Shown: positions 101 to 19,001 of the stretch, in pieces
Layout: each line of letters starts with the position of its first letter
Position numbering within the stretch: the first letter of the stretch is position 1
Assembly (NCBI GenBank): GCA_048939725.1
Contig: JBHLPG010000056.1
Span: forward strand, 1-19,001
DNA from: Promethearchaeota archaeon
Lineage (GTDB): Archaea > Asgardarchaeota > Heimdallarchaeia > Hodarchaeales > Hodarchaeaceae
DNA length: 19,001 nucleotides
Direction of reading: 5' to 3'
Translations under genes and position numbers: made by a program
The notes under the pieces: model-generated
What the model saw: only the letters and a program-made list of their open reading frames with translations
Told to the model about the DNA's origin: nothing
Databases searched by the model: none

Positions 101-318
101 CATCGCCCCATGTAAATAGCTGGGTTTCTCTGCAAGTTATCTACAACTAATGTTGAACTATTTTCGCTTCTCTTAGGTTAATATAAGGTGAGTTTTGTAT
201 CCAATTATGTAAAAACATGGGAAAGATTAAATAAATTCAAAGGAGAGATAATAATAAGGCTCTCCCACCTAATCATATAAGGAATCTTACAATTGTAACT
301 AGACCTGGTTGATTATAA

Positions 319-810: not shown

Positions 811-816
811 ATAGCT

Positions 817-1128
817 TTGACCAAACCTCCTGTGCGCGATTCAAGGATTCCCTGTCCTAATTGCAAAAAAGGAACCCTTTTTTGGAATCCTGAAGAGAAA
901 TTATACGTTTGCACAGATTGTGGGGTTCAAGAGGCGGCTTTAAAAACATGGATTAGCGCTGCCGAGTATCGTCAGGAGAAAAAACATCGAAAACGTGAAA
1001 AAGAACGTCAATGGGCATTAGAAATATTAGGAGTGGAAGATCAGCTTACTCCTTCCAAGAAATCAAAAAAAGAACAAGAGTGGGCTGAACTAATTGATTT
1101 GATTAAAGAAAAAGAGTCTGAACCTTAA
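817..1128 (+). CDS. Small zinc-ribbon protein with charged helical C-terminus
   Basis: 103-aa ORF, TTG start 6 nt after the preceding stop codon. CPNC-x16-CTDC zinc ribbon followed by a Lys/Glu-rich helix. Confidence 0.65.
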   Translation: MTKPPVRDSRIPCPNCKKGTLFWNPEEKLYVCTDCGVQEAALKTWISAAEYRQEKKHRKREKERQWALEILGVEDQLTPSKKSKKEQEWAELIDLIKEKESEP

Positions 1129-1373
1129 AATAGTAGATTTCCCGCTAAAAAGTTACTCTGAAATATTTACCTCTGAATATGGGAGTAACGAAATTTCTCC
1201 CTTGTTTAATTAACCTAAATTTTCAAACTAATCCAGAGATCAATCTTTTGTTTTTTCATGAATTTTATGTTAAATTGAAAACACTTAATTGAAGGTTAAA
1301 TAACCTCTGACTTGATAAACAACTCCACTCGAATACGGAAAACACTTTTCCATTCAGTCCTTGCAAGCAAAAG

Positions 1374-2687: not shown

Positions 2688-2702
2688 CAAGGAGAACGAG
2701 TA

Positions 2703-4088
2703 TTGGAAGTAGCAGTAGATCTACATGCTCATTCAGTTTTTGCCGGTGGAACCCAAGCCCTCTCAATAACACCCAAAACAGAAGCTGATAATCAGAAAAA
2801 GGCTATTTCTCATTTATCAAAAACGAATCAAACAATGCCATTAAAGGGTATTGATGTCATTGGTACAGGAGATTGTCAATTCACCTTATGGACTAATATA
2901 CTTAAAGAAATTCTCATTGAAGATATGGAAGGTGTCTTTCTGCTTCAAGATCAGAGAAAGACTCGCTTCATTCTACAAACAGAGATGATATTTACAGCAA
3001 AAATAGGTAAATACTCAAAAGAGACACATATTATCTTTCTTTTCCCTAATTTTTCTTCTGTGGATGAATTTCGTACATTACTAGATAGATGGGGGGTTAA
3101 ACATAAAAAAATGGCAAGACCATTTATTACCTGTAAATCCTCTAGTCAGGTTGCTCAGCGTCTTCATTCTATTTTAGATTTGGATCCTTGGATTGAAGCC
3201 ATTCCCTCCCATATAATGACACCACAAGGTGTTTTTGGAACTGGAAAAGGAAATATTCGAATTAACCACTTAGAAGATTTTTTTGGTTCTGCTACCTCAA
3301 GATTGCAAGTCTTTGAGACTGGATTATCCGCTGATCCAGAATTTTTATCTTTGATCCCAGAATTAGACGATAAAGTGCTAATTTCAAATTCTGATGCACA
3401 CTCAAGTGCTTTACATAGGATGGGACGCGAATTTACGGTGGTATCTACCTTAAAAACTGATTATAAGAATATTATCAAGGCTTTGCGTAATAATAATGTC
3501 TTGTATACTGCTGAATTTCCTCCAGAAGAAGGACGGTTTTTTCTAACAGGTCACCGAGCTGGAAGGAAACGACCAGGTTTTCATGGTGACAGTGATTACT
3601 GTTTCTTTTCTCCTCAAAATGTACCTTCTCATGATGTTTGCCCAATATGTAATAAACCTCTAACTATAGGTGTATTCCAGAGATGTGTTGAGATTAGTAA
3701 TGCTCAAGGTGGAAAAAGAGAGCTTGGAGGAACTACTTCCTTCAAAAAATTCATTCGTATGGTACCGTTGATAGATATATTGGGTCATGTGCTAGAAATA
3801 AAAACTAAGACTGCAAAATCATTAATCACGAAATATCGACAGATTATAGACATTATTGGCCCCGAACGCGTGTTATGGCAAATGGCCTCTGAAGAAGTCG
3901 AAAGTAAACTGAATGATCATATAGAAAACCACATTCTGAAAGCAATTCTCAAAGTAAAAGCTGGGGATTTTACATTTGAACCATATGGGTATGATGGAGT
4001 TTATGGTACTCTAGTAATTGGCCAGAGAGGAAATTATAAAAATGTAAATGTGATTCATTCTTCAAAACCAATTCAACAAACACTTTAA
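2703..4088 (+). CDS. Endonuclease Q (PHP-domain nuclease, deaminated-base DNA repair)
   Basis: 461-aa ORF with PHP motif DLHAHS, SHIMTPQGVFG, SNSDAHS, zinc motif CPICNKPLTIGVFQRC, and C-terminal HILKAILKVKAGDFTFEPYGYDGVYGTLVIG, all characteristic of EndoQ. Confidence 0.9.
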   Translation: MEVAVDLHAHSVFAGGTQALSITPKTEADNQKKAISHLSKTNQTMPLKGIDVIGTGDCQFTLWTNILKEILIEDMEGVFLLQDQRKTRFILQTEMIFTAKIGKYSKETHIIFLFPNFSSVDEFRTLLDRWGVKHKKMARPFITCKSSSQVAQRLHSILDLDPWIEAIPSHIMTPQGVFGTGKGNIRINHLEDFFGSATSRLQVFETGLSADPEFLSLIPELDDKVLISNSDAHSSALHRMGREFTVVSTLKTDYKNIIKALRNNNVLYTAEFPPEEGRFFLTGHRAGRKRPGFHGDSDYCFFSPQNVPSHDVCPICNKPLTIGVFQRCVEISNAQGGKRELGGTTSFKKFIRMVPLIDILGHVLEIKTKTAKSLITKYRQIIDIIGPERVLWQMASEEVESKLNDHIENHILKAILKVKAGDFTFEPYGYDGVYGTLVIGQRGNYKNVNVIHSSKPIQQTL

Positions 4089-4130
4089 TCTGTTCTTTTT
4101 GGTTTATACTTCGATTATTCGTTTTAAGAA

Positions 4131-5408
4131 GTGAATATGACCATGGTAAAGGTACCTGCAAATCAAGAGCTGTGTCTCAGATGTAAAGCTGGTAAATTCC
4201 TCTGTGGTCTTCACTATTGTCCCATTATACTTAAGACAAAGGCCTTGTTACCTGTTAGAAAAATCTTACCAAGATTGAGAATAAAGAAAGAATATTACGG
4301 GCCTAGCCCTCCTAGTTTGTTTGTTGGAAGGTTTGGTTATCCAAAGGTTCGATTGGGACCAATGGCAGCATTGAATTGGGAGGATATTCATTTAATGGAT
4401 GAACCTGACCTATGGCGGACAAATATGTCATTAGAAGACGTTGTAAACCTTCGGGCTCAAATGTTTCGATTTATGGCTGAACCAGTAAATGTAACGGATG
4501 TAACATCACCAACTAAGATTCTTGAAATCACACAGGAACAAATTCAATCTTCTACTCCAGTTGATCTGGAAGTAAAGTTTTCTAAAAAGCCTCAATTAAA
4601 CCTAAATTTTGATCGTTATACTCAACCAATGGGTGCACGTATTAGAATAGACTCTATCCAATTGACGACAGTGCCTAAGATTGATCAACAGGTAGATCGT
4701 GTTGTGAGTGATTCTGATATGAATGCTACTTCTGCAGTTACGAAGCTATATACAACTGAGGCTACAGTAACTCAAATTTCAAGAATACTGTCTGCTGGTT
4801 TGTTAGGCCGAACAAAAAATCGAAGATTTGTTCCAACACGATGGAGTATCACGGCTGTTGACGATATGACTGGAAATTACCTTAGAAAGCAGATTCAAGA
4901 TTTTACTGAAATTCAGGATTATCAGGTTTATCACAACTCCTATTTAGATAATGATTTCTGGGTTCTATTTATTCCGAGACGCGTGTGGCACTTCGATTAT
5001 CATGAAACTTGGAAACAAAAAAGTGCATGGAACCTAACAGGATCTGCCCCATTTATCGCAACAGATACAGAAGGCCCTAATGGGCGAACATCATATGCGA
5101 CAAATACTGTTGGAGGGTATTATGCAGCACGATTAGCAGTATTGGAGAAATTATTTCAACTACGAAGAAAAGCCGCGGTTATTGCTTTTAGAGAAGTTGG
5201 GAAAGGATACGCTATTCCATTAGGTGTATGGCAAGTCCGAGAAAACATGCGAAAGGCACTTAGAAAACCAAGTAAAAGATTTTCTAGCTTAGAAGCAGCA
5301 TTAAGATTCATTCATTCCCATCTTACAATACCCATGAAGTATTATCATCAAAAAAGCCCATTACTCAAGCAGAAAACATTGGATGCCTACTTTAAAAACC
5401 AAACATAA
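4131..5408 (+). CDS. Nre-family archaeal DNA repair protein (NreA-like) with C-terminal PCNA-interacting motif
   Basis: 425-aa ORF. N-terminal Zn motif CLRCKAGKFLCGLHYCPI, SPPSLFVGRFGYPKVRLGPM, and RRVWHFDYHETW...; C-terminal QKTLDAYF matches the PIP box consensus QxxLxxYF. GTG start; ATG codons at 4137 and 4143 are alternatives. Confidence 0.88.
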   Translation: MNMTMVKVPANQELCLRCKAGKFLCGLHYCPIILKTKALLPVRKILPRLRIKKEYYGPSPPSLFVGRFGYPKVRLGPMAALNWEDIHLMDEPDLWRTNMSLEDVVNLRAQMFRFMAEPVNVTDVTSPTKILEITQEQIQSSTPVDLEVKFSKKPQLNLNFDRYTQPMGARIRIDSIQLTTVPKIDQQVDRVVSDSDMNATSAVTKLYTTEATVTQISRILSAGLLGRTKNRRFVPTRWSITAVDDMTGNYLRKQIQDFTEIQDYQVYHNSYLDNDFWVLFIPRRVWHFDYHETWKQKSAWNLTGSAPFIATDTEGPNGRTSYATNTVGGYYAARLAVLEKLFQLRRKAAVIAFREVGKGYAIPLGVWQVRENMRKALRKPSKRFSSLEAALRFIHSHLTIPMKYYHQKSPLLKQKTLDAYFKNQT

Positions 5409-5548
5409 GAGCTTATCCTTCCTCGTCTCATACTAGAATAAATAAATAATCAGATTTCCCTCCTTCTATTGACCACATTTCATTGAAAGATTCCCTTGCC
5501 ATAGTAATAGAAGTCTTTAAATCGAAATACTGATCTAGTCCATAACTG

Positions 5549-5917
5549 GTGATTATTCTCGTGGGTTATTACGAATCTCTAACTGCAGCCATTACCCGTT
5601 ATTACGTCTTTAGCGGTCTTTTTCGTGAGGGCGATGAACAGATGACTTTTGAAGTAGCTGACGCAAATTTGATTGAAGTAGGCCAGACTGTGGAAAAAGA
5701 ATTCGCAGGAAGCGCCCGAGCTTTCTTTATTGAACTAGATAGCTTTGATGACGAAACATATCAATGTGAAATCATCATTGGATTCACATTATGGCCCTAT
5801 GAAGACGATGAAAATGAAGAAAAGCTTATTCTAGATAGTTTACGTGAAGAGCTCGAAAAAATAGGTTTTGTAGAGGATGATGCATATTATCTGGGGGATG
5901 GGCCTGATAGGCGCTAA
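5549..5917 (+). CDS. Small acidic hypothetical protein
   Basis: 122-aa ORF, GTG start (alternative GTG at 5561). Amphipathic alpha/beta-like sequence; no recognised family. Confidence 0.55.
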   Translation: MIILVGYYESLTAAITRYYVFSGLFREGDEQMTFEVADANLIEVGQTVEKEFAGSARAFFIELDSFDDETYQCEIIIGFTLWPYEDDENEEKLILDSLREELEKIGFVEDDAYYLGDGPDRR

Positions 5918-5950
5918 AATGTCTTTAGATTATTTTCTAGAGTGAGCACC

Positions 5951-6904
5951 TTACATTTCTATATGATGATAATATTTGATCCTCTTCCCATAAATCTGTT
6001 GAAACGTCATATGAACAGTTTGGGGTGGGATTAAACCCGCTTCAGTAATGTAGGCCGAGATATTATAACGATCTATTGTTTCAAAAGCAGGGTTCAGGAT
6101 TTTTATTCCTGCGGGAACATCCTCATCCCAAATTTCAAAAGGAGCACGCATTTCGATTTCACTAAGACGGCCAATACTTGTAGCTTGATCATATTTTAAG
6201 AGTGATGTGCATATATACAACGGAATGTGTTCTTCTTCAGCTGCTAAAGCACATAAACGGGAACCAATCTTATTTAAGGCAACACCTTCAACAGTTATCG
6301 CATCTGCTCCCATAAAAACCATATGAGGATTAAAAATATTCATTGCCCACCGCATTGCAGAATCTACAATGTGTGTAACACGAATATTATGATTTATCAG
6401 CCTTTTAGCTGTCTTTCTGCCTTGGTACAGGGGTCTTGTTTCAGTAGAAATAACTTCGAAATCTTTCCCTTGTTTTGCAGCCTCTAGAAATATTCCTACA
6501 GTGATGGAGGAATGACAGTGAGTGAAAACTCTTGAGCCATCTTGAATTCTCTCAGCACCAGTTTTAAAAATTTTCAATTTAGCATCATTTATGAGGTCAA
6601 TATACTTCTTACCATGTTCTACAGCAGACTCTTTTCCATCAAATTGAATCCCAGTCATCACATAACGTAAACCGTTCCTTAATGCTGGTTCAGTTACTCT
6701 TACCTTACTGAGCTGATCAACAACAACCTCTAAATGATCAAATAATTCTTTTTCTTTTAATGGAACAGTCTTTGCATGATTTGCGAAAGCACGAACCCCG
6801 AAAATAGCTACATTTGTGGCACCTTGAATAGTCAGATTTCTAATTTCCTTCATTGTAATTTTTAGCGCACGATACTCTGGGGTTTCTACAAAATTGTTTT
6901 TCAC
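5951..6904 (-). CDS. Ribose-1,5-bisphosphate isomerase (eIF2B-related, archaeal nucleotide-salvage type)
   Basis: 317-aa ORF, GTG start. FTHCHSSITVGIFLEAAKQGKDFEVISTETRPLYQGRKTA, MVFMGADAIT and NKIGSRLCALAAEEEHIPLYI match the eIF2B-alpha/R15P isomerase family. Distinction from other eIF2B-like paralogues rests on the THCHSS and GADAI context. Confidence 0.82.
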   Translation of the reverse strand: MKNNFVETPEYRALKITMKEIRNLTIQGATNVAIFGVRAFANHAKTVPLKEKELFDHLEVVVDQLSKVRVTEPALRNGLRYVMTGIQFDGKESAVEHGKKYIDLINDAKLKIFKTGAERIQDGSRVFTHCHSSITVGIFLEAAKQGKDFEVISTETRPLYQGRKTAKRLINHNIRVTHIVDSAMRWAMNIFNPHMVFMGADAITVEGVALNKIGSRLCALAAEEEHIPLYICTSLLKYDQATSIGRLSEIEMRAPFEIWDEDVPAGIKILNPAFETIDRYNISAYITEAGLIPPQTVHMTFQQIYGKRIKYYHHIEM

Positions 6905-7286
6905 AATTAATCCTCTCCTAGGAAATTAACCAGCGGATTAAGATACTTTTTTACCTTTACTTAATATGTCTATTACAATCAAAAAACGTAGACTTGATTC
7001 TTCCACTCCAGCCTAGGGTGCTGGTTCCATTAAATTCGATGTTTCAAAGCTAACTAATAAAAATTTAAAAGCAAAAGGAACATACAGTTTAAGAATCACG
7101 ATAATCAGCCTAATCGTACTTTTTTGAATGTAATTAACTTCTCACAATTATTTTTTATTATCCCAAGAGCTTTATTTGTAAAAATTTATGAGTGAAGGCT
7201 AAAAAGTTTTACATAAATAACTGATTTATTTTCCTTAGGAGCAATGACTGATCTATAGCGATCGGTGGTTACCACTGTCAAGCATA

Positions 7287-8225
7287 CTGCGAAGAATATT
7301 CAAAGGTAAGCCTGTTGAGAAATACGAAATAACTATCATTGGTCTCGACGGTGCAGGAAAAACTACAATCGTGAATCGATTATTACGCTCTGAATTTGTC
7401 CCTACAACACGAACTCTAGGTGTTAACTATCGTACTGTAAAATATCGTCAGATAGAGTTCAATTTGGTTGATTTGGGGGGGCAGGAAATCTATCGAAATC
7501 TTCTTTGGCACGATTCTTTAGATAAGGCTTCAGCTATCGTTTTTGTGTTAGATAGTGCTGATATTCGTATTTCCGAGGCATCTGAGGCTTTCTGGGATTC
7601 AATTCAGCGCAATGAAAAGGTTCCTGTCTTGTTTATTGCAAACAAAATTGATCTTCCAGGTGCTCGAGCATTTGACCGGATTGTTAAAGATCTCGATCTA
7701 CCACGTGCTCAAAGATCAGCGAGGTCCGTTGGACTTTTTCGAATCTCTGCAAAGACTGGTGAGAATTTTTACGATGCATTCGACTGGATAGCTGATATTC
7801 TCACGGGAGAAGAGTCTAAGTTTAAATGTAAGGTACGAGTGGTGATCTTAATCAATTTAGATACCCATCAGATATATACAACGAAATTCACGAACATAGA
7901 TCGTTTTGTTCTAGATCAATTGAATATGGGTATTAGTGAAACAGTAAAAGAGCTGTCAAAGAATTCAACTGGAATGGAGGTAATTACTGCGTCTGATTTG
8001 CAGCTTACTATAGTGAAGAATGATCCTTTAGTGATCGGCCTCATAATAGGCTATTCAGATTCTGTTGTGCGAGCTAAATTGATTGCTGAGAGGCTAATGA
8101 AAACAGCTTCTGCATCAATTGAAATTGATCAATTCGATTCACGAGTACTTTTAAAATTAATGAAGAAACAATGGCCTTTAGACATATACAAGCCACAAGT
8201 GCAAACTGAAGAAGAGACTGTCTGA
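7287..8225 (+). CDS. Arf-like small GTPase with C-terminal extension domain (longin/Roadblock-like fold suspected); start codon non-standard or gene disrupted
   Basis: The ORF track starts at GTG 7371, but in-frame translation upstream gives LRRIFKGKPVEKYEITIIGLDGAGKTTIV, which contains the G1/P-loop GLDGAGKT (7341-7364). Downstream: DLGGQE (G3), NKID (G4), SAKTG (G5), then about 134 extra residues. The 7287 start (CTG) is tentative; the true start lies somewhere in 7248-7323. Confidence 0.85.
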   Translation: MRRIFKGKPVEKYEITIIGLDGAGKTTIVNRLLRSEFVPTTRTLGVNYRTVKYRQIEFNLVDLGGQEIYRNLLWHDSLDKASAIVFVLDSADIRISEASEAFWDSIQRNEKVPVLFIANKIDLPGARAFDRIVKDLDLPRAQRSARSVGLFRISAKTGENFYDAFDWIADILTGEESKFKCKVRVVILINLDTHQIYTTKFTNIDRFVLDQLNMGISETVKELSKNSTGMEVITASDLQLTIVKNDPLVIGLIIGYSDSVVRAKLIAERLMKTASASIEIDQFDSRVLLKLMKKQWPLDIYKPQVQTEEETV

Positions 8226-8228
8226 TAA

Positions 8229-10535
8229 TTAGAGATATTCTTTTATTCCCAGTAAATCCTTTCTACCGATTTCCGATTTACCTAGGAGCTTCTTTTCCAG
8301 TTCCATAAATTCTTTGATAATTCTCTCGTTAATACTGGGATGAATAGCCTTCTTGGCATCATGAAAATGACGTTGTTCAATTAATTCTGTGTTTAAATCC
8401 TCACGGAGAGCAATCATTACCGCTTCGCGGCATATTGCTGCAATATCAGCCCCTACATATCCATCTAGATCACTAGCGAGCTGAGAAAGGTTTACATCAT
8501 TACCTAACTTCATTCCGCTTGTGTGGATCTTTAGAATTTTCTCCCTAGATTTCAAGTCAGGAGGTTTCACTAAAAGTAATCGGTCAAATCTCCCAGGTCG
8601 GAGAAGGGCTGGGTCAATCATATCTGGTCGATTACTTGCTCCTAAAACCATAACATCACGTAAACTTTCTAAACCATCTATTAATGACAAAATTTGGTTT
8701 ACCACACTCTCTGTAACATGGCTTCCACCCGGAAAAGCGCCGCGGCGTGGAGCAATTGCATCTAACTCATCTAAAAAAATAATGGAAGGAGAAGCCTGCT
8801 TAGCTTTCCTGAAAACTTCACGAACGGCTTTTTCGCTTTCACCAACCCATTTTGATAATAATTCAGGTCCTCGAATAGCGATGAAATTGGCTTGACTTTC
8901 AGTAGCGACCGCTTTAGCCAAAAGGGTTTTTCCTGTGCCAGGAGGGCCATAAAGAAGAATGCCATGAGGAGGAGTGACACCATGGCGTTGGAAAATCTTA
9001 GGATGAGCTATAGGCCATTCGACAGCCTCAATAAGTTGTTGTTTCACTGTTTCTAGTCCTCCGATGTCTTCCCAATGGACATTTGGGATTTCAAGCAGTA
9101 CTTCCCTCATAGCTGATGGTTCTGTTATCTTAAGTGCTTCATCAAAGTTTTCTTTTGACACAACTAACTTCGAAAGAATCTCAGGAGTAAGGGGCTTGTC
9201 AAAATCAATTTTAGGCAGGACTTTTCTGAGAGTATGCATTGCAGCTTCTTTAGTAAGAGCAGCAATATCTGCTCCAACAAATCCATGAGTTTTAGCCGCA
9301 TATTCATGTAGGTCAACATCATCAGCTAAAGGCATTCCTCTAGTATGAACTAATAAGACCTCGTAACGGCCATTTTTATCTGGAACTCCGATTTCGATTT
9401 CTCTATCAAATCGGCCAGGCCGACGCAATGCAGGGTCAAGAGCATTCGGACGATTAGTCGCTCCAATTACAATGACTTTACCACGGCTCTTTAAACCATC
9501 CATTAAAGCGAGAAGTTGAGCTACAACACGTCTTTCTACTTCACCAGTAACCTCTTCCCGTTTCACAGCGATAGAGTCCAATTCATCTATGAAAATAATG
9601 CTAGGTGCCTCTTTTTCTGCATTTTGAAATATTTCCCGAATACGTTGTTCACTCTCTCCATAAAATTTAGACATAATTTCTGGACCCGCTATTGAAACAA
9701 AATTCACTCCTGATTCATTTGCAACTGCTTTCGCTAACAGAGTTTTTCCTGTTCCAGGGGGCCCATGTAATAAAACTCCTTTTGGGGGATCAATACCTAG
9801 ACGCTCAAAAAGTTCGGGGTGCTTCATCGGAAGTTCAATCATCTCCCGAACCCTTTTTATTTCCTCTGAAAGCCCTCCAATATCTTCATATGTCACACGT
9901 GGCATCATTCTAAGATCCTTAGGAGCTTCTTCGACAATTGTAACTTCTGTTGTATCTCCTACAGTTACGATGCCTTCTGGATCTGTTGCTACAACTATAA
10001 CTTTAATTTCACCCAAAGAAACAGGGCTTGTTGCCCCAAAGAATCTAGATATAAAATCATCCATTCCTGTACCAGTAGTTCCTCCTCCAGAAGGAGGTAT
10101 CTTCCTGATTTGTCCTGTGATAACTAGTAAATCTCCCCGAGAAACAGGATGATTCTGTAAGCGTTCACGAATAATCTCAGATCGAACTAAAAGACGAATT
10201 CTTTCTTCTGCGGGAGCAATCGTAATACGTTTTGCTTCTCGCTTCCTGATTTTCCGAATTCGAACTGTTTCCCCTAAACTTGTCCCCACATTTCCTCGAA
10301 TCAATCCATCCATCCGAATGATTTTTTTTCCCCGATCTTCTCTTCTTCCAGGTATGACCAATGCACCTGTTTTCTTACCTCCCGTCCTTTCACTGGCAAT
10401 CTCTACAATATCTCCAGTTTCTAATCCATTTTCCCGCATAATAGAATAGTCAACTCTGACTAATCCTCGGCCAACATCACCCTGGTTGGCTTCAACTACT
10501 TTTAAAAGTAGTTCCTTCTCATTATCATCTGTCAT
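8229..10535 (-). CDS. CDC48/VAT/p97-type AAA+ ATPase with two AAA modules
   Basis: 768-aa ORF. CDC48 N-domain; two Walker A motifs ([15 protein letters not shown]), Walker B IIFIDELD and IIFLDELD, and SRH motifs [20 protein letters not shown] and [20 protein letters not shown]. Confidence 0.96.
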
Positions 10536-10602
10536 TTGACAAACAATTCCCTAATGCTTTTTTTCCTTAATTTAATCTAAGTTTGAAAGAATTATAATTA
10601 TT

Positions 10603-11409
10603 TCACCTGTCATTACCTGTTGAATTAATCAATTTATGAAGATATGCTTTTGCAGCAAGGACATCTTTCTTAGCAACCTCTACTGAGTCAGCTGTTTTAG
10701 AAATAATCAGGTGTATATTTTTTTCCTCCTGATATGCCTCAGGAAGTGATTTTATCCATACATCATGCTTTTGACGTACTTGTATTAAGAATGGGGCAAG
10801 TAATGATTCATCTGTAAAAGCTGAGGTGAACTCTGTCTCATAATAACCAATTTGCTTTTGATTTTTTAAAACAGAGATTTTCGTCTCAACTGCTTTATAC
10901 ATCTCCTTCATCTCACGGGGAACCCCTGGAAGACAAAAAATCCATGTATTCGAAAAATCGTGGATAAAAAAGATGCCAGGAGCAGTTCCTACTGGATTAT
11001 CAATAATTTCAGAACCTACTGGAAGAATTGCCATTTTTTTACGTGCTGGTGTAATCTCAGCAGTGTCTACTAGACCCTTATCAAATAGGTCTTTGTAACG
11101 CTTAGTTACCATTGATAAGGCTTCAATGTTAAGTTCAGTATTCACATTTAATGCTTTAGCTAAGAAGATTGCAGTCGAATCATCCCAAGTTGGGCCTAAT
11201 CCTCCTGTAATTAGAATAAGGCGATATCGACCAGAAGATATAAGGAGAGAAATTTCATTTGGAACTACATCTGGGTCATCAGGAAGGGTCAAGATTTTCT
11301 GAACAACAAAACCAAGGTTTGTGAGTTTTTTCGCAAGAAAGTTAGCGTTTGTGTTAACGGTTTTCCCTGACAGTAATTCATTTCCAACAGAAATCAAGCA
11401 CACATTCAT
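10603..11409 (-). CDS. CinA-like / MoCF (molybdopterin-binding) domain protein
   Basis: 268-aa ORF. MNVCLISVGNELLSGKTVNTNANFLAKKLTNLGFVV, ILITGGLGPTWDDST, NPVGTAPGIF and CLPGVPREMKEM are CinA N-terminal domain motifs. No C-terminal deamidase domain. Confidence 0.88.
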   Translation of the reverse strand: MNVCLISVGNELLSGKTVNTNANFLAKKLTNLGFVVQKILTLPDDPDVVPNEISLLISSGRYRLILITGGLGPTWDDSTAIFLAKALNVNTELNIEALSMVTKRYKDLFDKGLVDTAEITPARKKMAILPVGSEIIDNPVGTAPGIFFIHDFSNTWIFCLPGVPREMKEMYKAVETKISVLKNQKQIGYYETEFTSAFTDESLLAPFLIQVRQKHDVWIKSLPEAYQEEKNIHLIISKTADSVEVAKKDVLAAKAYLHKLINSTGNDR

Positions 11410-11730
11410 TTATTAAAAGCCTCAAAAAAGTAAATCTGTTGATTTTACCACTCGATAGACATTTCTTTGGTCAAAACTCCTAAAAAGAAGAATATCTTCT
11501 TAATTTTTCTATCCAAAATGACTTGAATCTTTTCTATGTTCAATATGAGATTAAATTTGTTTAATAGAAATGTATTAATTTTTCTATGAATTATGAAGCA
11601 GGGTACTTATACTACAGAGCTCATTCAACATTTAAAGGTTAAATCTATTTGATCTGATTAGATTAATTTAAAAAAGGAGTAAGCTATCGTGAACTAAAGT
11701 ATGTCATTGTAATACACATATATAACTGAA

Positions 11731-11738
11731 ACATATAA
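11731..11738 (+). promoter_or_regulatory. Candidate TATA box (ACATATAA) upstream of the tubulin-like gene cluster
   Basis: ACATATAAAG at 11731-11740, about 55 nt upstream of the ATG at 11792, in the divergent intergenic region. Confidence 0.3.
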
Positions 11739-11791
11739 AGAACCCTCTCTGGAAGTAGTAACGAAAAGAAACTACACATCATCTTCAAAGG

Positions 11792-14700
11792 ATGCTTGTT
11801 AAAATGTCATCGGAAGGAAAGCTTCTGGTTTCAAAAGAAGTACTTCATAAAATTAGAGATTTAGTGACTGAGTTACGCTCAATTGACCCCACAGTGCAAG
11901 TTGTCTCCGCATTAAATGAAGCCCAAAAATTAGTGATAGAAATCGAAAAACTAGAGAAAGCCTTACCAAAAGCTGGTTTCTTTAAAAAGAGGGGAATTAA
12001 TAAAACTCTTACTCAAGATAAGGAAAAGTACAACAAGCTGACAGAGGAGTTACTAAACGCTCTTTTGGTTGGATTTCGTAAAATTTACTTTGATCTGGCA
12101 AATAACATCAAAGAAATAGCTAAATTTATCCCCCAGGAAACAGAAACTATTCGGAAACTGCAAATTCCAAGCTTTGATGTAAACGAAATCCTGAAGTTTA
12201 GTTCACAAGTTCTGAGGACATATAACCAGATTTCTGAGGTTTTACGAGGGAAAAATGTTTCAATTTTGTTATTTAATCGTGAGATTATCGAGCTTTATGG
12301 AAAATTTGTTAATTTTGATGAAGAAAAGGTTCAAGTGACAAATCAGACGACAAAAACAAGTATTCATGTGATGACAATACCCGATTTACTTGAAGTTTAT
12401 AGTCTTTTAGATGCTGAAAATGCGTATCTAAAGCAGCGGAGGAAAGGTACAGAAGGCAAAATACAATTGGCAATTGTTCAAATGTCCTCTGAACTACAAC
12501 AGCATATTGATACTGTTGCATCAATTGGTTTAGACCTTTGGAATAAAATTGATATTTTGAAAGAGGAAGTTCAAGACGTTCAGACAAGTGCGGACAGAAC
12601 AACTTCAGTTGAAACTCTTATCTCGTTAGAGAAACGACTTAATTCCCTTAGTAATGAGTTTATCAACATTTTACGGACATATGAAATATCCCTTAAGACA
12701 GAAACAGATGATCAAATTGGACGAATAATTCAGATCTTTGGGAAGGAAGGACTAGAGTCTACTTTTTCCCCAGCTCCAGAAACAGATATATCATCTACAA
12801 TTATTCCAACTATTATCCAGGATATCGAGAAAATTCGTTCTTGGCGCCAACAGCAGATAATTGCTACAAAAAAGATTCTTAGTACATCAGAGCTAATCAA
12901 TTCATCCAAAGCAATTCGTGCGATGAAGATACCAGTCCCTCCTAACATTGAGAAAGATGTACGGGCGATAGAGAAAGAAGCAGCAAAAACAAGCGACCTT
13001 CAAGAGTGGGTAGAACTAGCAAAAAGGTATCATGACTTGAAAACATCCCTTGCTGGCGAATGCCAGAATTATTTTTTCCGACTACTCGAAAATCCACATA
13101 TTCAAGAGGTCATTAACCTAAGTGAAGGGCCACAGATACCTACCATTCGCGATTTTGAAGCTCTTAGTCCCAGTGAATTAAGTAGTAAAGCTCGTGAGAT
13201 CAAGGATTGGGAGACTCGTTTGGTTGCTTATTTTTCTAAACCCGCTCAACAAAGCCTCAGACAGAATTTATTAAATTTATATGATTCTCGTGAAAGTTTA
13301 CGGGATATTATGTCACCTGAGTTGAAAGAACAAATCGATTATCAAAGAAAGCAGAAGATTGCAGAGGAAATTGATATTCGTGACTTAGTTCATGAGATTG
13401 AGGGGTTGCATAGACTTAATGCAAACATTAAAACTGAGCTTTGGAATAAAATAGATAATGAGATACATCCCATTTACAATCAACTTACAAATCTCGAAAC
13501 AATTCCTCCAAAATTAAAAATACATGTTCCAATTCTCACAATAGACGATTTAAAATCCTTCCGAGAAGAAGCCAGTGAAGCAGCTCAAAAAAGTATTCAG
13601 GAGCTGTTAGATGAATATGAAAAGATACCACTGTGGAAATACAAGATATCCTCCCGAATCCGTGAAAATTTGAAAGCAATTCCTTTTCCTTTAATACCTG
13701 TAGAGACACGATTCGATTTAAGGGAAAAACGTAATCAAATTGTTGATTTAATAGATGATTTTTCAGAACAAGGGAACATTGAAGCCGTAATCAAAGAATA
13801 TATTTCTTTCTTAGAAACAATTGAAGAAAATAAGAAGGAAATTCTTATTGAATTGAAAAAACAAATAGGGAATCTTGAAGGAGTCGATAGAAGACTCTTT
13901 AGATTATTAAAATCTCGGAAAACTAGTTTAATCTATTCTACAGATAAAGAAATAGATAATCTTGATTATTCTGAAGCTTTAACAGAATTCTGGCAATTAT
14001 CTGCCTTTATCGATCGAAAAGCTTCAACATTAGCAGAGCAAATGGAACGTGAGATTTCCTCTCATATACAGGACTATTCAAAACTTCCTAGTCAGTATTC
14101 AGGTTTTTTTGATGAAACCTTGAAACTTATGGAAGAGAAAATGGATGAAATTAAAACCCATAAAGATATTGTCCGTTTAGTTAATGTTTTTGAGAGTTAT
14201 AGCTTGGAAAGCTTACAAATGGCAAAAGATTCCTTAGCCAAACTTCATCAAAATCTCTATAATTGGCTGAGGGTTAGTCTCCCTAGGATAAATGAAATAA
14301 CACCTCTTCATGAAGCGATTTTTAGTGCGGAGAAGAAAGTTGCTGATTTTGAAGCTGAGGAAGTATCTCATGAGCGATTAGCTCACAAATTAAGACAGTT
14401 GATATTCCTTTATGATACGGAAATCTTGGCTGTTTTACTAGCACATGGAGTTCAGGAATCACGAAGGGTTCTGAAAAATGTTAACGACTTGAAAGATGTC
14501 GGGATCAATATTATTGAGTATGTTGGGAGTTATATCGAAAATTTCAGTCAAATAATTGTCAAAAACCAAGAAGATGTTCAATTACGAGAAGTAACTGATG
14601 TTTTCATCGAAATTGATAATTTACAGACTGATACTAAAGCTTGTCGTGAAATTCGATCCATGGGAAAACGCTATATTACTGAAATTCAAGATTCCGTGGA

Positions 14701-15307
14701 ATATTCATTTAATCATTATCAAATTGACTTACGTCAGGATGAACGAGTTGATCTAGCATATCTTAGCAAATTTCAAGAAATAGCAACGACTGATCACGTT
14801 AGTCGTTTAACTGAAGCTATCCTTGAATTAGCTGCAGTTAGAACCTCTGTAATTGAAATTATGAAAGCAATTGAGAAAAGTCGAAATGCTGCTCTACAGG
14901 CCGAGTTGGGGGAGTTAGAATATTATTCTGACATTCAAGAAGTGTTCAAACGATATACAAAGGAAGCATCAGAAAAGATATTCCCATTGTCAGAATTAAT
15001 TAAAGCTCGTGAGGAATTTCTTGATTCTCATGATCTTAGATATATTCTAGAGTTATTACCAAAAATAGATGAGCAAAGAAATGAGTGGAAAAACGTATCA
15101 ATACAGTTAAACCATTGGCACCGAGCTGTTCGAATGTTTCGACCTCGTTACACCCCAACAGAGAGTAGAGATGAAAATTTACGATTTTATAAAGAAATAT
15201 CTAAGAAAATCAAAGATACATATCCTCACAATGAAGTAATTCGTTCTTATTTAAGTCTAGTAATGAAATTACTAATTGAAATTAAATCTGGAATAAAATT
15301 GGAGTAA
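11792..15307 (+). CDS. Giant all-helical / coiled-coil repeat protein (uncharacterised), first gene of the tubulin-like cluster
   Basis: Uninterrupted 1171-aa ORF, ATG start (second ATG at 11804). Rich in Leu/Ile/Glu/Lys with heptad-like periodicity. Recurring units include LWNKID repeated 301 codons apart. Confidence 0.9.
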   Translation: MLVKMSSEGKLLVSKEVLHKIRDLVTELRSIDPTVQVVSALNEAQKLVIEIEKLEKALPKAGFFKKRGINKTLTQDKEKYNKLTEELLNALLVGFRKIYFDLANNIKEIAKFIPQETETIRKLQIPSFDVNEILKFSSQVLRTYNQISEVLRGKNVSILLFNREIIELYGKFVNFDEEKVQVTNQTTKTSIHVMTIPDLLEVYSLLDAENAYLKQRRKGTEGKIQLAIVQMSSELQQHIDTVASIGLDLWNKIDILKEEVQDVQTSADRTTSVETLISLEKRLNSLSNEFINILRTYEISLKTETDDQIGRIIQIFGKEGLESTFSPAPETDISSTIIPTIIQDIEKIRSWRQQQIIATKKILSTSELINSSKAIRAMKIPVPPNIEKDVRAIEKEAAKTSDLQEWVELAKRYHDLKTSLAGECQNYFFRLLENPHIQEVINLSEGPQIPTIRDFEALSPSELSSKAREIKDWETRLVAYFSKPAQQSLRQNLLNLYDSRESLRDIMSPELKEQIDYQRKQKIAEEIDIRDLVHEIEGLHRLNANIKTELWNKIDNEIHPIYNQLTNLETIPPKLKIHVPILTIDDLKSFREEASEAAQKSIQELLDEYEKIPLWKYKISSRIRENLKAIPFPLIPVETRFDLREKRNQIVDLIDDFSEQGNIEAVIKEYISFLETIEENKKEILIELKKQIGNLEGVDRRLFRLLKSRKTSLIYSTDKEIDNLDYSEALTEFWQLSAFIDRKASTLAEQMEREISSHIQDYSKLPSQYSGFFDETLKLMEEKMDEIKTHKDIVRLVNVFESYSLESLQMAKDSLAKLHQNLYNWLRVSLPRINEITPLHEAIFSAEKKVADFEAEEVSHERLAHKLRQLIFLYDTEILAVLLAHGVQESRRVLKNVNDLKDVGINIIEYVGSYIENFSQIIVKNQEDVQLREVTDVFIEIDNLQTDTKACREIRSMGKRYITEIQDSVEYSFNHYQIDLRQDERVDLAYLSKFQEIATTDHVSRLTEAILELAAVRTSVIEIMKAIEKSRNAALQAELGELEYYSDIQEVFKRYTKEASEKIFPLSELIKAREEFLDSHDLRYILELLPKIDEQRNEWKNVSIQLNHWHRAVRMFRPRYTPTESRDENLRFYKEISKKIKDTYPHNEVIRSYLSLVMKLLIEIKSGIKLE

Positions 15308-15347
15308 TATTCCCTATAAACAGATATTAAAAAAAGAGTGTGTCAAA

Positions 15348-16718
15348 ATGTCAATTGAAGGTGGACCAGAATCAGAGATCTTTGCAATTGGAATTGGTGA
15401 ATGTGGTAGTAATCTTGTGGGAAGCTACCTAGCCAGATCTAAGAAAGGCGAGCTACCTCAACGTATTAGAGAATATCTGGTACTAAATACTGATCGTGGC
15501 GATTTATTAAAAGCCCGAAAAAAATATTCCATTTCAAAAAATCGAACTCTTCTCTATTCAGACGCTGAAATTGGTGTCGGGGGAAAATTCTCTGCGGGAT
15601 ACGAATCGGTTATGAACTCTCAAGATATTATTCTAAATCAATTACAAGGTTTGGGCTACGAAGGGATTAGTGGTTTTTGCATTTTTACCAGCTTTGGGGG
15701 TGGAACTGGATGTGGGGGGACTCCTGCTTTAATACAATTGTTAAGAAAGCGGTTCGCTGAGGAGGAAAAGCGTAAGATCTTCATTTATGTTTTTGGGGTC
15801 TTACCATTTGTTAATCAATCATCTGAAGCAGTAAATAGTGTCTGGGCTTTATCAAAATTACTCCGACTTCAGCTTGAGGAAGGAAATATGGGACCTGATT
15901 TAATACTTCTTCTTTCTAACAGAACAATGCTTGAGAGGGTTTTAAGCTGGCAACGTGGGGAATCCGTTGATTTGTTGAGTCGTCAAATAGGAAAAGATCT
16001 AGCTGACTTGAGCAGTGAGCAAGTAAGCTCCAGTATTCCTGCTGTTATTGGCCAAGACGGGACAGCTTATCCAGCTCAGCTAGAAGAAGCATTTGTAGAA
16101 TTGGTTAACCCTCTAGCCTTGGAATCCATAGCTGAAATGTTATCCCCAGGAGTACCTGAAGTTGGGAAAGAAGTCTTACCTACAACTGATATTGGTGATT
16201 TCGCTCTAAAATTAGATAGTGTGGTTGTTCCAGCTATGTTTGATGATTTAGCTGTTTTTCCAGAAGTTGGAGGGATGGATTCACAGCTTTCTACTGCAGT
16301 TGAATATACTCTTTCTAATTGTAGCTTGACAGATATGGGAACAAACCCCACAGCTTCTTCTGTTTTTTCGGTACTCAGTGGACCACAGAATATTGCACGC
16401 GTAGAATATGATCCGCTTTTGAAAAAAGCATTGGCACCTTTTTTAGCTAAAGGAGCAAGTATCTCTCCAACATATTGTGCCTATGATGATGATAATACAA
16501 GAGCATCTCTTCTCCTGTTATTCGGCCTTCCAAAAATCCCAGAACTTCATGATATTCTTGAAGAAGCTAAAGCACTCATAAACCTTCATAGTGGAGACTC
16601 TGAATTAAAACAACATTGGTTTAAACGGTCTAAAGGTACAACACGAAAGGAATTGGAAGAAGCAGTGAGCGATTTAGAAAAATTATTTGGATATTATATT
16701 AAACCAGAAAAAGTTTAA
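15348..16718 (+). CDS. Divergent tubulin/FtsZ-superfamily GTPase
   Basis: 456-aa ORF. T1-like FAIGIGECGSNLVGSYLA, T3-like GVGGKFSAG, T4 signature FGGGTGCGGT (tubulin/FtsZ GGGTGxG), PDLILLLSN and T7-like TTDIGDFALKLDSVVVPAM. Too divergent to be called canonical FtsZ1/FtsZ2 or CetZ by eye. Confidence 0.88.
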   Translation: MSIEGGPESEIFAIGIGECGSNLVGSYLARSKKGELPQRIREYLVLNTDRGDLLKARKKYSISKNRTLLYSDAEIGVGGKFSAGYESVMNSQDIILNQLQGLGYEGISGFCIFTSFGGGTGCGGTPALIQLLRKRFAEEEKRKIFIYVFGVLPFVNQSSEAVNSVWALSKLLRLQLEEGNMGPDLILLLSNRTMLERVLSWQRGESVDLLSRQIGKDLADLSSEQVSSSIPAVIGQDGTAYPAQLEEAFVELVNPLALESIAEMLSPGVPEVGKEVLPTTDIGDFALKLDSVVVPAMFDDLAVFPEVGGMDSQLSTAVEYTLSNCSLTDMGTNPTASSVFSVLSGPQNIARVEYDPLLKKALAPFLAKGASISPTYCAYDDDNTRASLLLLFGLPKIPELHDILEEAKALINLHSGDSELKQHWFKRSKGTTRKELEEAVSDLEKLFGYYIKPEKV

Positions 16719-16732
16719 GGTGCTAGATCAAA

Positions 16733-17794
16733 TTGGACAGAAAAGATCCCCCAAGGTTTGAATACACTAACAAAGAACATCCAAACTCTAATGAATCTAA
16801 TGAAAAATCATCTGACCAAGATGAAGAAAAACTCCCTTCATCTGATTTTTGGATGTCCAGGGGAAACATGGGTGAGAAGATAAATATCCTTATAGGATTA
16901 AATCTCGTTCTTATAAACTTAGTTTCCTCATTTATGCTAACTAAGGATGATCCTATTCCTGGTGATTTGGTTAAAAGTCTAATCAAAACCCAGGAATTTC
17001 TTAATAAAATGGTCATGCAGCCAGAAAAAGGGTTAGAAATTTTAGAAAATATTGAAATAGTTTACTCCAAAGTGGCCACATTAATGGAGGGAGTTACAAA
17101 TTCTACTATGTCAACCATTGCTTTAGAAAAGAAACCTCAGGATGTCCCAGAAAATGTCTTTGGTTTATTTCAAAGAAATGCAGTCTACCTAGATAAATGG
17201 GGGATAATTGAAAGTATCGAAAACTTAATCGCTTCTTACTCAAATTTATCTCATATAGGTTTTCCGAATTTTTACTTCACTGCGAGTAAAGAGTTGCATC
17301 GTTATGAATTGACACAGGATCCTGTTTCAAACCAATATGATATTATTCAAATACCCTCCTTTCAACTTAGAAATCTGGTAAGTAAGTTATTACGTGAAGC
17401 ACCCGCAGCCCGTTTATTACAAAATCTTCGGAAAATGTTTCCTGCAGAAGAAGATTCAGCTCTTACTTCAATAGAACAAGATGAAATCCATAACATTGTA
17501 GAATTGTATTATAAAAACATTTCAGAATATTTTAGCGGAACTCGCAGCTTGCAGGATTCTCTCCGCATCTCATCAGGGATCTTAAAGAACTATAACCTAG
17601 GAACAGGAGATTTGGAATCAAGAATACCTAATGTTTCTTTTAATATTACAAAAGAAATCAATTTAGAGCTTCAAAATACGGAGAATATATTGAAACAGTA
17701 TATATTATCTGAAACCATCATCCTGATCCATCGATTGAATGATTCACTCTTACAGAGTGAAAGATTTGTCCTCTTCTTAAGACATCTAAAATAA
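16733..17794 (+). CDS. Uncharacterised helical protein with disordered N-terminus and one hydrophobic segment (possible membrane anchor)
   Basis: 353-aa ORF, TTG start 14 nt after the tubulin-like gene's stop. Residues 1-45 are polar/acidic and low-complexity; residues 50-69 are INILIGLNLVLINLVSSFML; the rest is predicted helical. Confidence 0.75.
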   Translation: MDRKDPPRFEYTNKEHPNSNESNEKSSDQDEEKLPSSDFWMSRGNMGEKINILIGLNLVLINLVSSFMLTKDDPIPGDLVKSLIKTQEFLNKMVMQPEKGLEILENIEIVYSKVATLMEGVTNSTMSTIALEKKPQDVPENVFGLFQRNAVYLDKWGIIESIENLIASYSNLSHIGFPNFYFTASKELHRYELTQDPVSNQYDIIQIPSFQLRNLVSKLLREAPAARLLQNLRKMFPAEEDSALTSIEQDEIHNIVELYYKNISEYFSGTRSLQDSLRISSGILKNYNLGTGDLESRIPNVSFNITKEINLELQNTENILKQYILSETIILIHRLNDSLLQSERFVLFLRHLK

Positions 17795-17885
17795 TAACTT
17801 TTTTATGAAATAAGACATAATTAAAAATATAAATTTCATAATTATTTCTTGTCAAGACTGAAGGAACTATGTGTGAGGTAAGAAT

Positions 17886-18752
17886 ATGGGAATAGAAGAT
17901 GGTATTAAGAATATCCAACAGATGACAATAGAGAATAAGCAATCCCTTAATAGAATTAAAGATGTTGTAAGCTCACTTCAAGGATTTCAAGATCCTTCTG
18001 AATCAATCCAAAAGCTCTCAATGGTAATACTTGGTTTTGAAGAAAACATTAATTCCTTGCTTAAACTAGTTGAATCCTCTCGAATAAGTTCAGAGTTACA
18101 ATCTTCAATTGAAAGCCTTCCTCAAATGATCTCAAGCTTAGAGGAATCACTTGGTAAGATTCTTAGTACTTTTGAAAAAACTTCTGAAGAAACAAAAAAT
18201 GATTTAAAATTTATAAAAGTCAGTTACGTTGAAGACGTTGTTGGAAATATGCGTAATTTATCTAACAAAATTACTGAAGAGGTGGGTGGTTCCAACAACA
18301 GAATTACCGCGTTATATGAAGCAACAGTTGACCATTTTGGGGAAATAGTGGAAAAACTTAACAATGTTGAAAGTAGTTTAAACGCTCTAGTTGAGAATCA
18401 AGCAGATCAATTAGCCACAGTAGCAGATCTCAGGGATCGTGTTAGTGCAATCATTCAGGTTGAGTTAGCATCACTAAGAGATCGAATTGCAATATATCTT
18501 GAGACATCGATAAATGAGTTAAAAACATCAGTAACAGAACGCTTGGCTACCCAGGATGGTACTCTTCAAAACTTGACAAACGTCACCCGACAATTAACCC
18601 AGAACATTAATGCTTTACCTGAATTAGTAAAACAGCAAATAGAAGCAGCAGTTGAAACAAGAGTCACCACTGAACTCACTTCAATGGAAAAAGAAATGAA
18701 AAAGATGACTGCTTTTATTATCAGGGCCATGAAAGACAAAGATTCTTCATGA
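17886..18752 (+). CDS. Coiled-coil protein (uncharacterised)
   Basis: 288-aa ORF, ATG preceded by GAGGTAAGAAT (SD-like). Long heptad-like stretches such as LATVADLRDRVSAIIQVELASLRDRIAIYLETSINELKTSVTERLATQ. Confidence 0.85.
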   Translation: MGIEDGIKNIQQMTIENKQSLNRIKDVVSSLQGFQDPSESIQKLSMVILGFEENINSLLKLVESSRISSELQSSIESLPQMISSLEESLGKILSTFEKTSEETKNDLKFIKVSYVEDVVGNMRNLSNKITEEVGGSNNRITALYEATVDHFGEIVEKLNNVESSLNALVENQADQLATVADLRDRVSAIIQVELASLRDRIAIYLETSINELKTSVTERLATQDGTLQNLTNVTRQLTQNINALPELVKQQIEAAVETRVTTELTSMEKEMKKMTAFIIRAMKDKDSS

Positions 18753-19001
18753 TTCAGTAACGATTCGTTCAAAATTATACGCTTCAAATAGCCCTCGCTC
18801 TGTTAAGTATTTGAATAAATCAAGAATCTTCTCGCCATTATCCGTACCAAAACGTTCTAGACAATCATTGAAAGAAACCATGCTGTTTTTATCTAACATA
18901 TCATCAATTAATTCATCAAGGCTTTCCTGAGGAATATCATCCTGAATTTCTAGAGTTTTAGGAAATTCTTTGTAAAATGAATATAGCTTCCCCCCACGAG
19001 G
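18747..19001 (-). CDS. 3' end of a hypothetical protein gene running off the right edge (5' end outside the window)
   Basis: Reverse-complement frame is open for 84 codons: PRGGKLYSFYKEFPKTLEIQDDIPQESLDELIDDMLDKNSMVSFNDCLERFGTDNGEKILDLFKYLTERGLFEAYNFERIVTES followed by TGA. Not in the ORF track, presumably because it is partial. Confidence 0.6.
   Translation of the reverse strand, partial: PRGGKLYSFYKEFPKTLEIQDDIPQESLDELIDDMLDKNSMVSFNDCLERFGTDNGEKILDLFKYLTERGLFEAYNFERIVTES

Follow-up and report, generated by a model that had tools for sequence, protein, structure and literature searches.

Asg.Tub was described as a "CetZ-like" Asgard group of four sequences (OLS26264.1, OLS30664.1, KXH77455.1 and PWI48967.1) with an unstable position between CetZ and the tubulins, and the genes around it were remarked to be of unknown kind and to encode coiled coils (Santana-Molina et al. 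2023, PMC9871819). As published, the group has no assigned function, no partner families and no test of neighbourhood conservation, and our literature search found no further paper that names Asg.Tub or describes its partner genes. We analysed a 19,001-nucleotide stretch of DNA (hereafter the window) from a Promethearchaeota archaeon of the Hodarchaeaceae (GenBank assembly GCA_048939725.1, contig JBHLPG010000056.1, positions 1 to 19,001), in which a gene that we assign to Asg.Tub, g2, lies between genes for a large and a smaller helical protein, g1 and g3, with a coiled-coil-type gene, g4, following g3. We found that g1, g2 and g3 form a real conserved unit, which we call the triad, in which the orphan families of g1 and g3 co-occur with the published GTPase. 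A preliminary description of this locus had proposed a four-gene, undescribed system. The g1-g2-g3 unit stood up to analysis, whereas g4 was found only in the window's clade; the GTPase family had already been published in 2023, whereas no description appears to exist of the three-component architecture or of the two families of orphan partners.

Several described systems offer points of comparison. The solved structures that best match the GTPase domain of g2 are those of CetZ (4b46, 4b45 and 3zid), while the C-terminal half of g2 is without detectable similarity; a likely shape-related role of g2 outside division would have its counterpart in CetZ. CetZ itself is without g1- or g3-like partners. 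Asgard tubulin-superfamily proteins have been classed as non-canonical and outside CetZ, the CetZ clade being bounded by Thermococcales CetZs and carrying CetZ-specific residues around the nucleotide pocket, and the genes reported around CetZ, for type IV pili, cofactor biosynthesis and a sugar epimerase, bear no relation to those around g2 (Brown and Duggin, PMC9856176). FtsZ with SepF, FtsA, ZipA and EzrA belongs to the same superfamily and works on a like principle, a GTPase polymer dependent on adaptors of its own; however, g2 fails the FtsZ equivalog model, SepF and FtsA are not nearby, and g1 and g3 have no sequence or fold likeness to any solved protein, solved FtsZ partners included. 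The FtsZL1/Tubulin_2 family is said to have been introduced by Makarova and Koonin in 2010 as a divergent GTPase related to FtsZ, set in a conserved neighbourhood of its own and with a proposed role in membrane remodelling. We rejected membership of g2 in this family, the match to PF13809 reaching 21.7 bits and falling below the cut-off of 27; the vWA and GTPase partners that the preliminary description attributed to it, and did not see at this locus, are missing from the conserved g1-g2-g3 unit. A tubulin-family gene beside helical partner genes is also found in BtubA/B-BtubC, AtubA/B and OdinTubulin, although the module holds a single GTPase gene instead of the A/B pair of BtubA/B and AtubA/B. 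Upstream of OdinTubulin lies a helical PRC1/Snf8-like gene and downstream of it a gene for a coiled-coil protein (PMC9871819), a layout similar to that of the module, but these flanking genes are specific to the genome, whereas the conservation of g1 and g3 extends across Asgard classes. Finally, the Halo_adaptin system places a non-canonical CetZ-like GTPase in a lineage-specific multi-gene module linked to membrane and protein sorting (Makarova et al. 2024, PMC10936438); it has Vps4/ESCRT-III, Ig-like (immunoglobulin-like) and beta-propeller components, none of which occurs in the Asgard triad.

The four genes are consecutive on the + strand, separated by gaps of 40, 14 and 91 nt in the list of open reading frames (ORFs), which agrees with the sizes and gaps reported in the preliminary description:

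11792..15307, + strand: g1, 1171 aa, ATG start; all-helical multi-domain protein, orphan family
15348..16718, + strand: g2, 456 aa, ATG start; tubulin/FtsZ-superfamily GTPase, assigned by sequence to the Asg.Tub (CetZ-like) family
16733..17794, + strand: g3, 353 aa, TTG start; helical protein, orphan family
17886..18752, + strand: g4, 288 aa, ATG start; coiled-coil-type protein

All four ORFs are real genes and not chance ORFs, because each has many homologs and low pairwise ratios of nonsynonymous to synonymous substitution (dN/dS); the g2 and g3 products are also called identically in the NCBI annotation of the same contig. For orthologous pairs (Nei-Gojobori), dN/dS was 0.014-0.034 for g2, 0.04-0.08 for g1, 0.06-0.17 for g4 and 0.13-0.20 for g3, and all four genes are under purifying selection. 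In our judgement, the g2 value of about 0.02 is typical of filament-forming proteins with many contact surfaces.

The g2 product matched the Tubulin/FtsZ GTPase domain of Pfam (PF00091) over residues 10-171 with 65.1 bits against a cut-off of 33. It has the following nucleotide-pocket and T7 motifs, all intact, so that its earlier identification as a divergent tubulin/FtsZ-family GTPase was borne out:

15390..15413, + strand: g2 T1 loop GIGECGSN, residues 15-22
15696..15719, + strand: g2 T4 tubulin signature GGGTGCGG, residues 117-124
16179..16202, + strand: g2 T7-like loop PTTDIGDF, residues 278-285, with acidic D281 and D284

Across nine diverse family members G15, G17, E18, C19, G20 and N22 of the T1 loop are invariant. 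The T4 motif has Cys where the GGGTG[ST]G signature has Ser/Thr; its residues 117-123 are invariant in all aligned family members, and residue 124 is Ala in the two most distant. The sequence of the CetZ-like protein 3zid that aligns with the T7 loop reads SVTDLGDF, and D281 and D284 are invariant in both a 44-sequence and a 9-sequence family alignment, down to 40% identity. By these motifs g2 carries the acidic T7 residue expected of the tubulin/FtsZ superfamily, which points to a catalytic function, and it is predicted to be a competent tubulin-superfamily GTPase with its nucleotide pocket and T7 residues intact. When the family profile was searched against the PDB, the best matches were CetZ1 (4b46, 5e-12), the Methanosaeta CetZ-like protein (3zid, 2e-8) and CetZ2 (4b45, 4e-7), followed by OdinTubulin, BtubA/B, tubulins, gamma-tubulin and AtubA at about 8e-6 to 2e-4. 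The CetZ and tubulin matches are limited to the N-terminal domain, the CetZ alignment covering approximately residues 15-175. A eukaryote-like tubulin was rejected as an identity for g2, the tubulin matches of 8e-6 to 2e-4 spanning only profile positions ~59-205 and Pfam giving no match to Tubulin_C, or to FtsZ_C, in the protein. Since g2 is 57% identical over 99% coverage (E 5e-162) to OLS26264.1 of Heimdall LC_3, which the supplement of PMC9871819 lists as one of the four founding Asg.Tub sequences, sequence comparison places g2 in Asg.Tub. The g2 family comprises more than 150 clusters at 90% identity, and the closest relatives of the window's g2 come from Hodarchaeales/Heimdallarchaeota metagenome-assembled genomes (MAGs), closed chromosomes among them; an identical protein is recorded at NCBI for a "Promethearchaeota archaeon" MAG. 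We also observed a low-complexity insertion of ~45 residues in g2 (residues ~201-247, 15948-16090), between the conserved LLSNRTML (T6/H7-like) and an NPL motif, that differs in length and sequence in every lineage.

Having identified the family of g2, we compared homologous loci (numbered with the prefix L). The order and strand of g1-g2-g3-g4 are kept in 16 species-level Hodarchaeales-type genomes wherever the contig allows. However, the whole region of ~14 kb (window 4131-18752; nreA-u122-if2b-arf-cdc48-cinA-g1-g2-g3-g4) is collinear in L005-L020, with proteins 41-97% identical, and synteny inside Hodarchaeales is therefore no evidence of functional linkage. Outside the window's clade, where flanking genes are unrelated between lineages, the order g1-g2-g3 recurs in Thor (L001/L002, L004, L023), in Heimdall LC_3 (L022) and in further Hod-type lineages (L021, L024). 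The g1 homologs of these lineages have 895-1400 aa and 16-25% identity (hidden Markov model (HMM) E 1e-46 to 1e-227), and the g3 homologs of L001/L002, L004 and L021-L024 were recognised by HMM at E 1e-28 to 1e-40. A reciprocal test gave the same picture: the three most distant full-length g1 homologs examined, which had been picked up with the g1 profile alone, all sit 2-9 nt upstream of a PF00091 gene that is 40-50% identical to the window's g2, and in the two of these three lineages where the contig continues, the next gene, of 269-293 aa, is a match to the g3 HMM (E 1e-17 to 4e-26). Altogether, g1 lies upstream of g2 in 28 of 28 loci having upstream sequence, and a g3-like gene lies downstream in 26 of the 28 having downstream sequence. 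In the loci examined, neither g1 nor g3 was ever found away from a g2 homolog. Two results that would have told against the preliminary description, a gene order not conserved in relatives and helical partners occurring independently of the GTPase, were thus not obtained for g1-g2-g3 in these loci, the order being kept in every lineage sampled. Because the order of the triad is kept while all flanks differ, with g2 down to 40% identity, we conclude that g1, g2 and g3 are truly linked. The genes are separated by 0-105 nt or overlap, with start/stop overlaps in L023 and L026, and such overlapping or abutting genes suggest co-translation.

Two further genes were noted near these modules. In L024, whose g2 is 60% identical to that of the window, a CinA/MoCF-like gene (2953-3843) lies directly upstream of g1 on the same strand. 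Arf-family GTPases occur near the modules of the window, L003, L022, L024 and L025, and were considered as partners; we judged this proximity not significant, as such GTPases are abundant in Asgard genomes and they are absent from the Thor loci.

The large partner, g1, was modelled by AlphaFold2 (AF2) as an all-helical protein of 44 helices, up to ~44 residues long, with a mean local confidence (pLDDT) of 81.5 and a predicted template-modelling score (pTM) of 0.40. The model suggests a chain of helical bundles, that is, a multi-domain protein rather than one long coiled coil. Translation may begin at Met5 (nt 11804), as orthologs begin MSSE. Two conserved modules were delimited:

11843..12718, + strand: g1 N-terminal module, ~residues 18-309; kept in shorter Thor-type homologs
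13979..15277, + strand: g1 C-terminal module, ~residues 730-1162; best conserved and most confidently modelled

The N-terminal module is 24% identical to Thor proteins of 895-897 aa (tblastn, E 1e-14 to 1e-16), and the C-terminal module (pLDDT mostly 85-94) was matched in all distant homologs by tblastn and HMM. Searches of Pfam, NCBIfam and PADLOC, and profile searches of the PDB with a close and with a diverse alignment, gave no match for g1 beyond sub-threshold helical noise, and a Pfam scan of nine distant g1 homologs gave only the same noise. At the level of fold, Foldseek returned nothing below E=0.19 in the PDB and nothing below E=0.008 in BFVD. The top non-significant matches were dynein tail, PRC1, alpha-catenin and phage tape-measure proteins, that is, generic long helical proteins, with PRC1 ranked second (E 0.34, probability 0.2). 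When the g1 profile was searched against 1.84 billion representative proteins, only 38 clusters matched.

The AF2 model of g3 is helical with three short strands. From an N-terminus that is disordered and acidic it runs through a hydrophobic helix (residues ~43-68) and a helical linker of poor model quality to a C-terminal domain:

16880..16942, + strand: g3 hydrophobic Asn-striped helix, residues 50-70, INILIGLNLVLINLVSSFMLT; possible membrane or oligomerisation helix
17150..17791, + strand: g3 C-terminal alpha domain, residues 140-353; pLDDT mostly >90 (AF2)

The C-terminal domain has the invariant motifs EAPxARLLQNL and LGxGDxExRIP, and it is on this domain that the g3 HMM matches in distant loci fall. 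No sequence match to g3 was found in Pfam or the PDB, and Foldseek found no match to its fold in the PDB (best E 0.38, TM-score <0.25). The preliminary description had marked a putative membrane segment, and in the window the helix at residues 50-70 is indeed hydrophobic, with a Kyte-Doolittle 19-residue mean (KD19) of 2.09. The segment is not conserved as such: the median over 60 orthologs is 1.78, many of the 60 have K, R, D or E within the helix, and the Thor, LC_3 and more distant orthologs have a KD19 of 1.0-1.6 or a merely amphipathic helix, with the Asn stripe conserved. The sequences thus leave a role in oligomerisation or partner binding at least as likely as membrane insertion, and the membrane-adaptor idea drawn from this helix is a weak one, since it is no conserved transmembrane segment. 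Two observations on g3 stand apart. It evolves much faster than the genes beside it: the window and L005 share 71% identity in g3, against 97% in g2 and 93% in g1, at similar dS, its dN/dS is ~0.2 against 0.014 for g2, and the change is concentrated in its N-terminal half. In L024 the g3 homolog (9421-11229) has 602 aa, with a g3-like region only in the C-terminal part and no Pfam match in the rest.

The fourth gene differs from the triad. It shows heptad periodicity in 23% of windows along its length, its matches are to sub-threshold generic coiled coils only, and it is present in 15 Hodarchaeales-type loci, yet it was undetectable, even by HMM, in every module outside the window's clade. Identification of g4 as a SNARE, ESCRT-III, EzrA or apolipoprotein was rejected, the matches all being sub-threshold coiled-coil ones. 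We also rejected g4 as a core component, because it is absent outside one clade and, inside it, is no more syntenic than the background: the nine genes upstream are collinear there as well, and g4 adjacency therefore says nothing about function. On this sequence evidence, membership of g4 in the module is doubtful. The orthologs in L007 (12628-13482) and L008 (12634-13488) end in a Cys-rich tail, KCPQCGKDVTC or KCPHCGKDVTC, that the window's g4 does not have and that may form a small zinc-binding knuckle. Comparison of g1, g3 and g4 by hhalign gave no sign of mutual relationship (probabilities <=3.5%). The preliminary description had called all three helical or coiled-coil: the helical part holds for g1 and g3 in their models, and coiled coil fits g4 only. 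It had also seen no enzymatic motif in them, and we likewise found neither a Walker A nor a CxxC motif in g1, g3 or g4.

We consider it somewhat better than an even chance (roughly 55%) that g1-g2-g3 is an Asgard-specific, operon-encoded cytoskeletal module in which a GTP-dependent filament works with two dedicated partners, separately from FtsZ-SepF division. From the observed gene structure, the family assignment, the conserved motifs, the synteny and the selective constraint, we infer polymerisation, physical interaction and a cellular role along the following lines. The g2 protein most likely binds GTP and would assemble head-to-tail into protofilaments, with D281 and D284 in the T7 loop of one subunit predicted to complete the GTPase site of the next. 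The g1 protein, ~900-1400 aa long with conserved N- and C-modules, would be an obligate filament-associated scaffold acting as nucleator, bundler or organiser. The g3 protein would be an adaptor linking the filament to its site of action, through oligomerisation or, in Hodarchaeales, possibly through contact with the membrane, and g4 would be at most a lineage-specific coiled-coil accessory. The module probably serves cell shape, protrusion or membrane organisation and not division, since, according to the literature, FtsZ and SepF are encoded separately in Asgard archaea (PMC10936438) and relatives of CetZ govern cell shape, not division (PMC12583498, citing Duggin 2015).

Several results weigh against this proposal. 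A PDB search found no sequence match for residues 240-456 of g2, whether in the C-domain of tubulin, FtsZ or CetZ or in any other solved protein. Neither g1 nor g3 has a fold match, so their scaffold and adaptor roles are assigned solely from genomic association, and the helix of g3 was rejected as a conserved single-pass membrane anchor on account of ortholog helices that are charged inside or too weakly hydrophobic. Hodarchaeales have a second paralogous module with g1-like and g2-like genes and no g3, and g1 and g2 lie apart in two genomes, with inserts of 4.3 kb and 9.8 kb between them, so that strict co-transcription is dispensable.

The structure of these unusual loci was as follows. Hodarchaeales genomes carry at least two paralogous modules each; that of L003 lies on the same chromosome as L005, and that of L025 in the same MAG as L019. 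In L003 (5568-13590) and L025 (5566-13605), the genes encode a 311-aa protein, a g1-like protein (~1140 aa) and a g2-like protein (441-444 aa, 54-55% identical), with no g3 or g4, and are followed by a convergent gene for a protein of 737-740 aa with an N-terminal Gtr1/RagA-type GTPase domain (104 bits in L025). The 311-aa gene upstream was considered as a displaced g3 and rejected, as it has no g3 HMM match. The two loci with insertions, L016 and L017, come from related Heimdall/Hod MAGs, and g1 and g2 are intact in both. L016 (B3_Heim, 5711-9979) has a single 1202-aa ORF at the g1-g2 junction, whose product is acidic at the N-terminus, contains an internal duplication and matches nothing in Pfam, whereas in L017 (159-10000) the genes are split by a ~9.8-kb island of seven ORFs, one of which encodes an AAA ATPase.

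The main rival to a filament module, which we regard as unlikely, is that g2 serves as GTPase subunit in a g1-g2(-g3) complex, stable and stoichiometric, that forms no filament and instead nucleates another polymer or works as a GTP-regulated switch, comparable to gamma-tubulin held by the large helical gamma-tubulin complex proteins (GCPs). Such a complex would fit the large size and all-helical make-up of g1 and its strict coupling to g2 in all lineages, the overlap or near contact of the genes, which suggests fixed stoichiometry, and the very low dN/dS of g2, as for a subunit held in a complex; there is also a weak match of the g2 profile to gamma-tubulin (~1e-4). However, the invariant D281 and D284 are a hallmark of polymerisation-coupled GTP hydrolysis, and g2 is closer to CetZ than to gamma-tubulin in the PDB profile search. 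A reading of g1 as resembling GCPs or the gamma-tubulin ring complex (gamma-TuRC) found no support either, since Foldseek gave no match to GCP/Spc97-98 chains although the PDB library searched includes gamma-TuRC structures.

It is improbable that the module forms an alternative or auxiliary division ring, in which g2 would be a third FtsZ-like protein with its own anchors replacing SepF. This idea draws on the place of g2 in the FtsZ/tubulin superfamily, on partner genes that could substitute for SepF or FtsA and on weak matches to EzrA, an all-helical regulator, in 2 of 16 g4 orthologs; the EzrA matches, however, are sub-threshold coiled-coil noise. We rejected g2 as a canonical FtsZ, since against the TIGR00065 equivalog it scored 31.2 bits where the cut-off is 295.2, over residues 9-134 only, and the 60 best PDB matches of its profile include CetZ and tubulins and no canonical FtsZ chain. 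This upholds the earlier view that the GTPase is not an ordinary FtsZ. Equally, the Pfam scan of the remaining window ORFs of at least 100 aa showed no SepF, FtsA or ESCRT gene, in keeping with what had been reported for the adjacent genes. No division-type context, whether a SepF/FtsA partner or a dcw or ribosomal/tRNA neighbourhood, was found in the window or in the related loci examined, although archaeal ftsZ1 typically has a ribosomal/tRNA context (PMC9871819). Most Asgard archaea, moreover, already encode FtsZ and SepF (PMC10936438).

We give very little credence to a DNA-segregation or mobile-element partition system of the TubZ/PhuZ kind. TubZ and PhuZ are likewise divergent tubulin-like GTPases encoded with dedicated partner genes, and two genomes do have insertions inside the module, but Pfam and NCBIfam reveal no winged helix-turn-helix or ribbon-helix-helix DNA-binding domain in g1, g3 or g4, the upstream region (11410-11791) has weak two-copy AT-rich repeats and no iteron-like centromere array, PADLOC defence models match only coiled-coil noise, g1 has no significant viral fold match in BFVD, and the module is chromosomal, in a stable housekeeping neighbourhood, with vertical inheritance across an order. 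Just as remote is a merely historical adjacency of genes that act independently: uninformative synteny within Hodarchaeales, where the upstream nine-gene neighbourhood is collinear too, would allow it, and it is the likely reading for g4, but g1-g2-g3 stay together while flanks change across lineages with g2 at 40-58% and g1 at 16-25% identity, and no g1 or g3 homologs were found outside this context.

The rest of the window is Asgard-like in content, with genes for folliculin-like, Arf-family GTPase, Roadblock-like, Cdc48, NreA, aIF-2B-family and CinA/MoCF-like proteins. One further feature belongs to the module:

11410..11791, no strand: AT-rich intergenic region between the divergent CinA/MoCF-like gene and g1; presumed promoter of the module

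The promoter/terminator scan was of a bacterial type and is uninformative for an archaeon. Three ORFs are grouped at 319-2687: a Roadblock/LC7-like ORF (319-810, sub-threshold), a TFIIB-type zinc-ribbon ORF (817-1128) and a folliculin-N-like ORF (1374-2687; 31.7 bits against a cut-off of 23.3). Together with the Arf-family GTPase 5 kb downstream, they resemble the eukaryotic Rag/folliculin/Roadblock regulatory toolkit. The Arf-like gene is listed as 7371-8225 (+ strand) with a GTG start, yet a P-loop, GLDGAGKTT, and an amphipathic N-terminal LSSILRRIFKGK are encoded in frame upstream of it (7245-7371). Seven orthologs start at GTG-TCx-AGx (V/M-S-S-I-L-R-R); in the window the corresponding codon (~7275-7277) reads CTG, and a conserved start codon has therefore been mutated; the CTG could be a non-canonical start, an assembly error or incipient pseudogenisation.

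Work on the Asgard cytoskeleton has so far dealt with Lokiactin, FtsZ1/2 and the rare true tubulins. The g2 family is far more widespread than true tubulins, occurring in Hodarchaeales, other Heimdallarchaeia, Thorarchaeia and further lineages, and it is under extreme constraint. With the GTPase always accompanied by g1 and almost always by g3, a lone "CetZ-like paralog" becomes a defined three-component system. The triad is amenable to co-expression, reconstitution, imaging and modelling, which commends it for experiments in the lineage nearest to eukaryotes. Should g1 and g3 bind the polymer, they would represent new classes of proteins associated with the tubulin superfamily and could show how filament-plus-accessory systems diversified before eukaryotes. 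A bolder proposal, which we advance tentatively and hold to be on balance doubtful, is that the triad is a third, Asgard-specific cytomotive filament system beside FtsZ and the true tubulins/Lokiactin, whose polymer works only with the giant g1 and the adaptor g3, proteins with folds not in the PDB, and which shapes membranes or protrusions in Hodarchaeales and Thorarchaeia. These lineages are close to the eukaryotic stem and, if the proposal is true, g1 would be the first case of a conserved prokaryotic counterpart to the large proteins that associate with microtubules or nucleate them.

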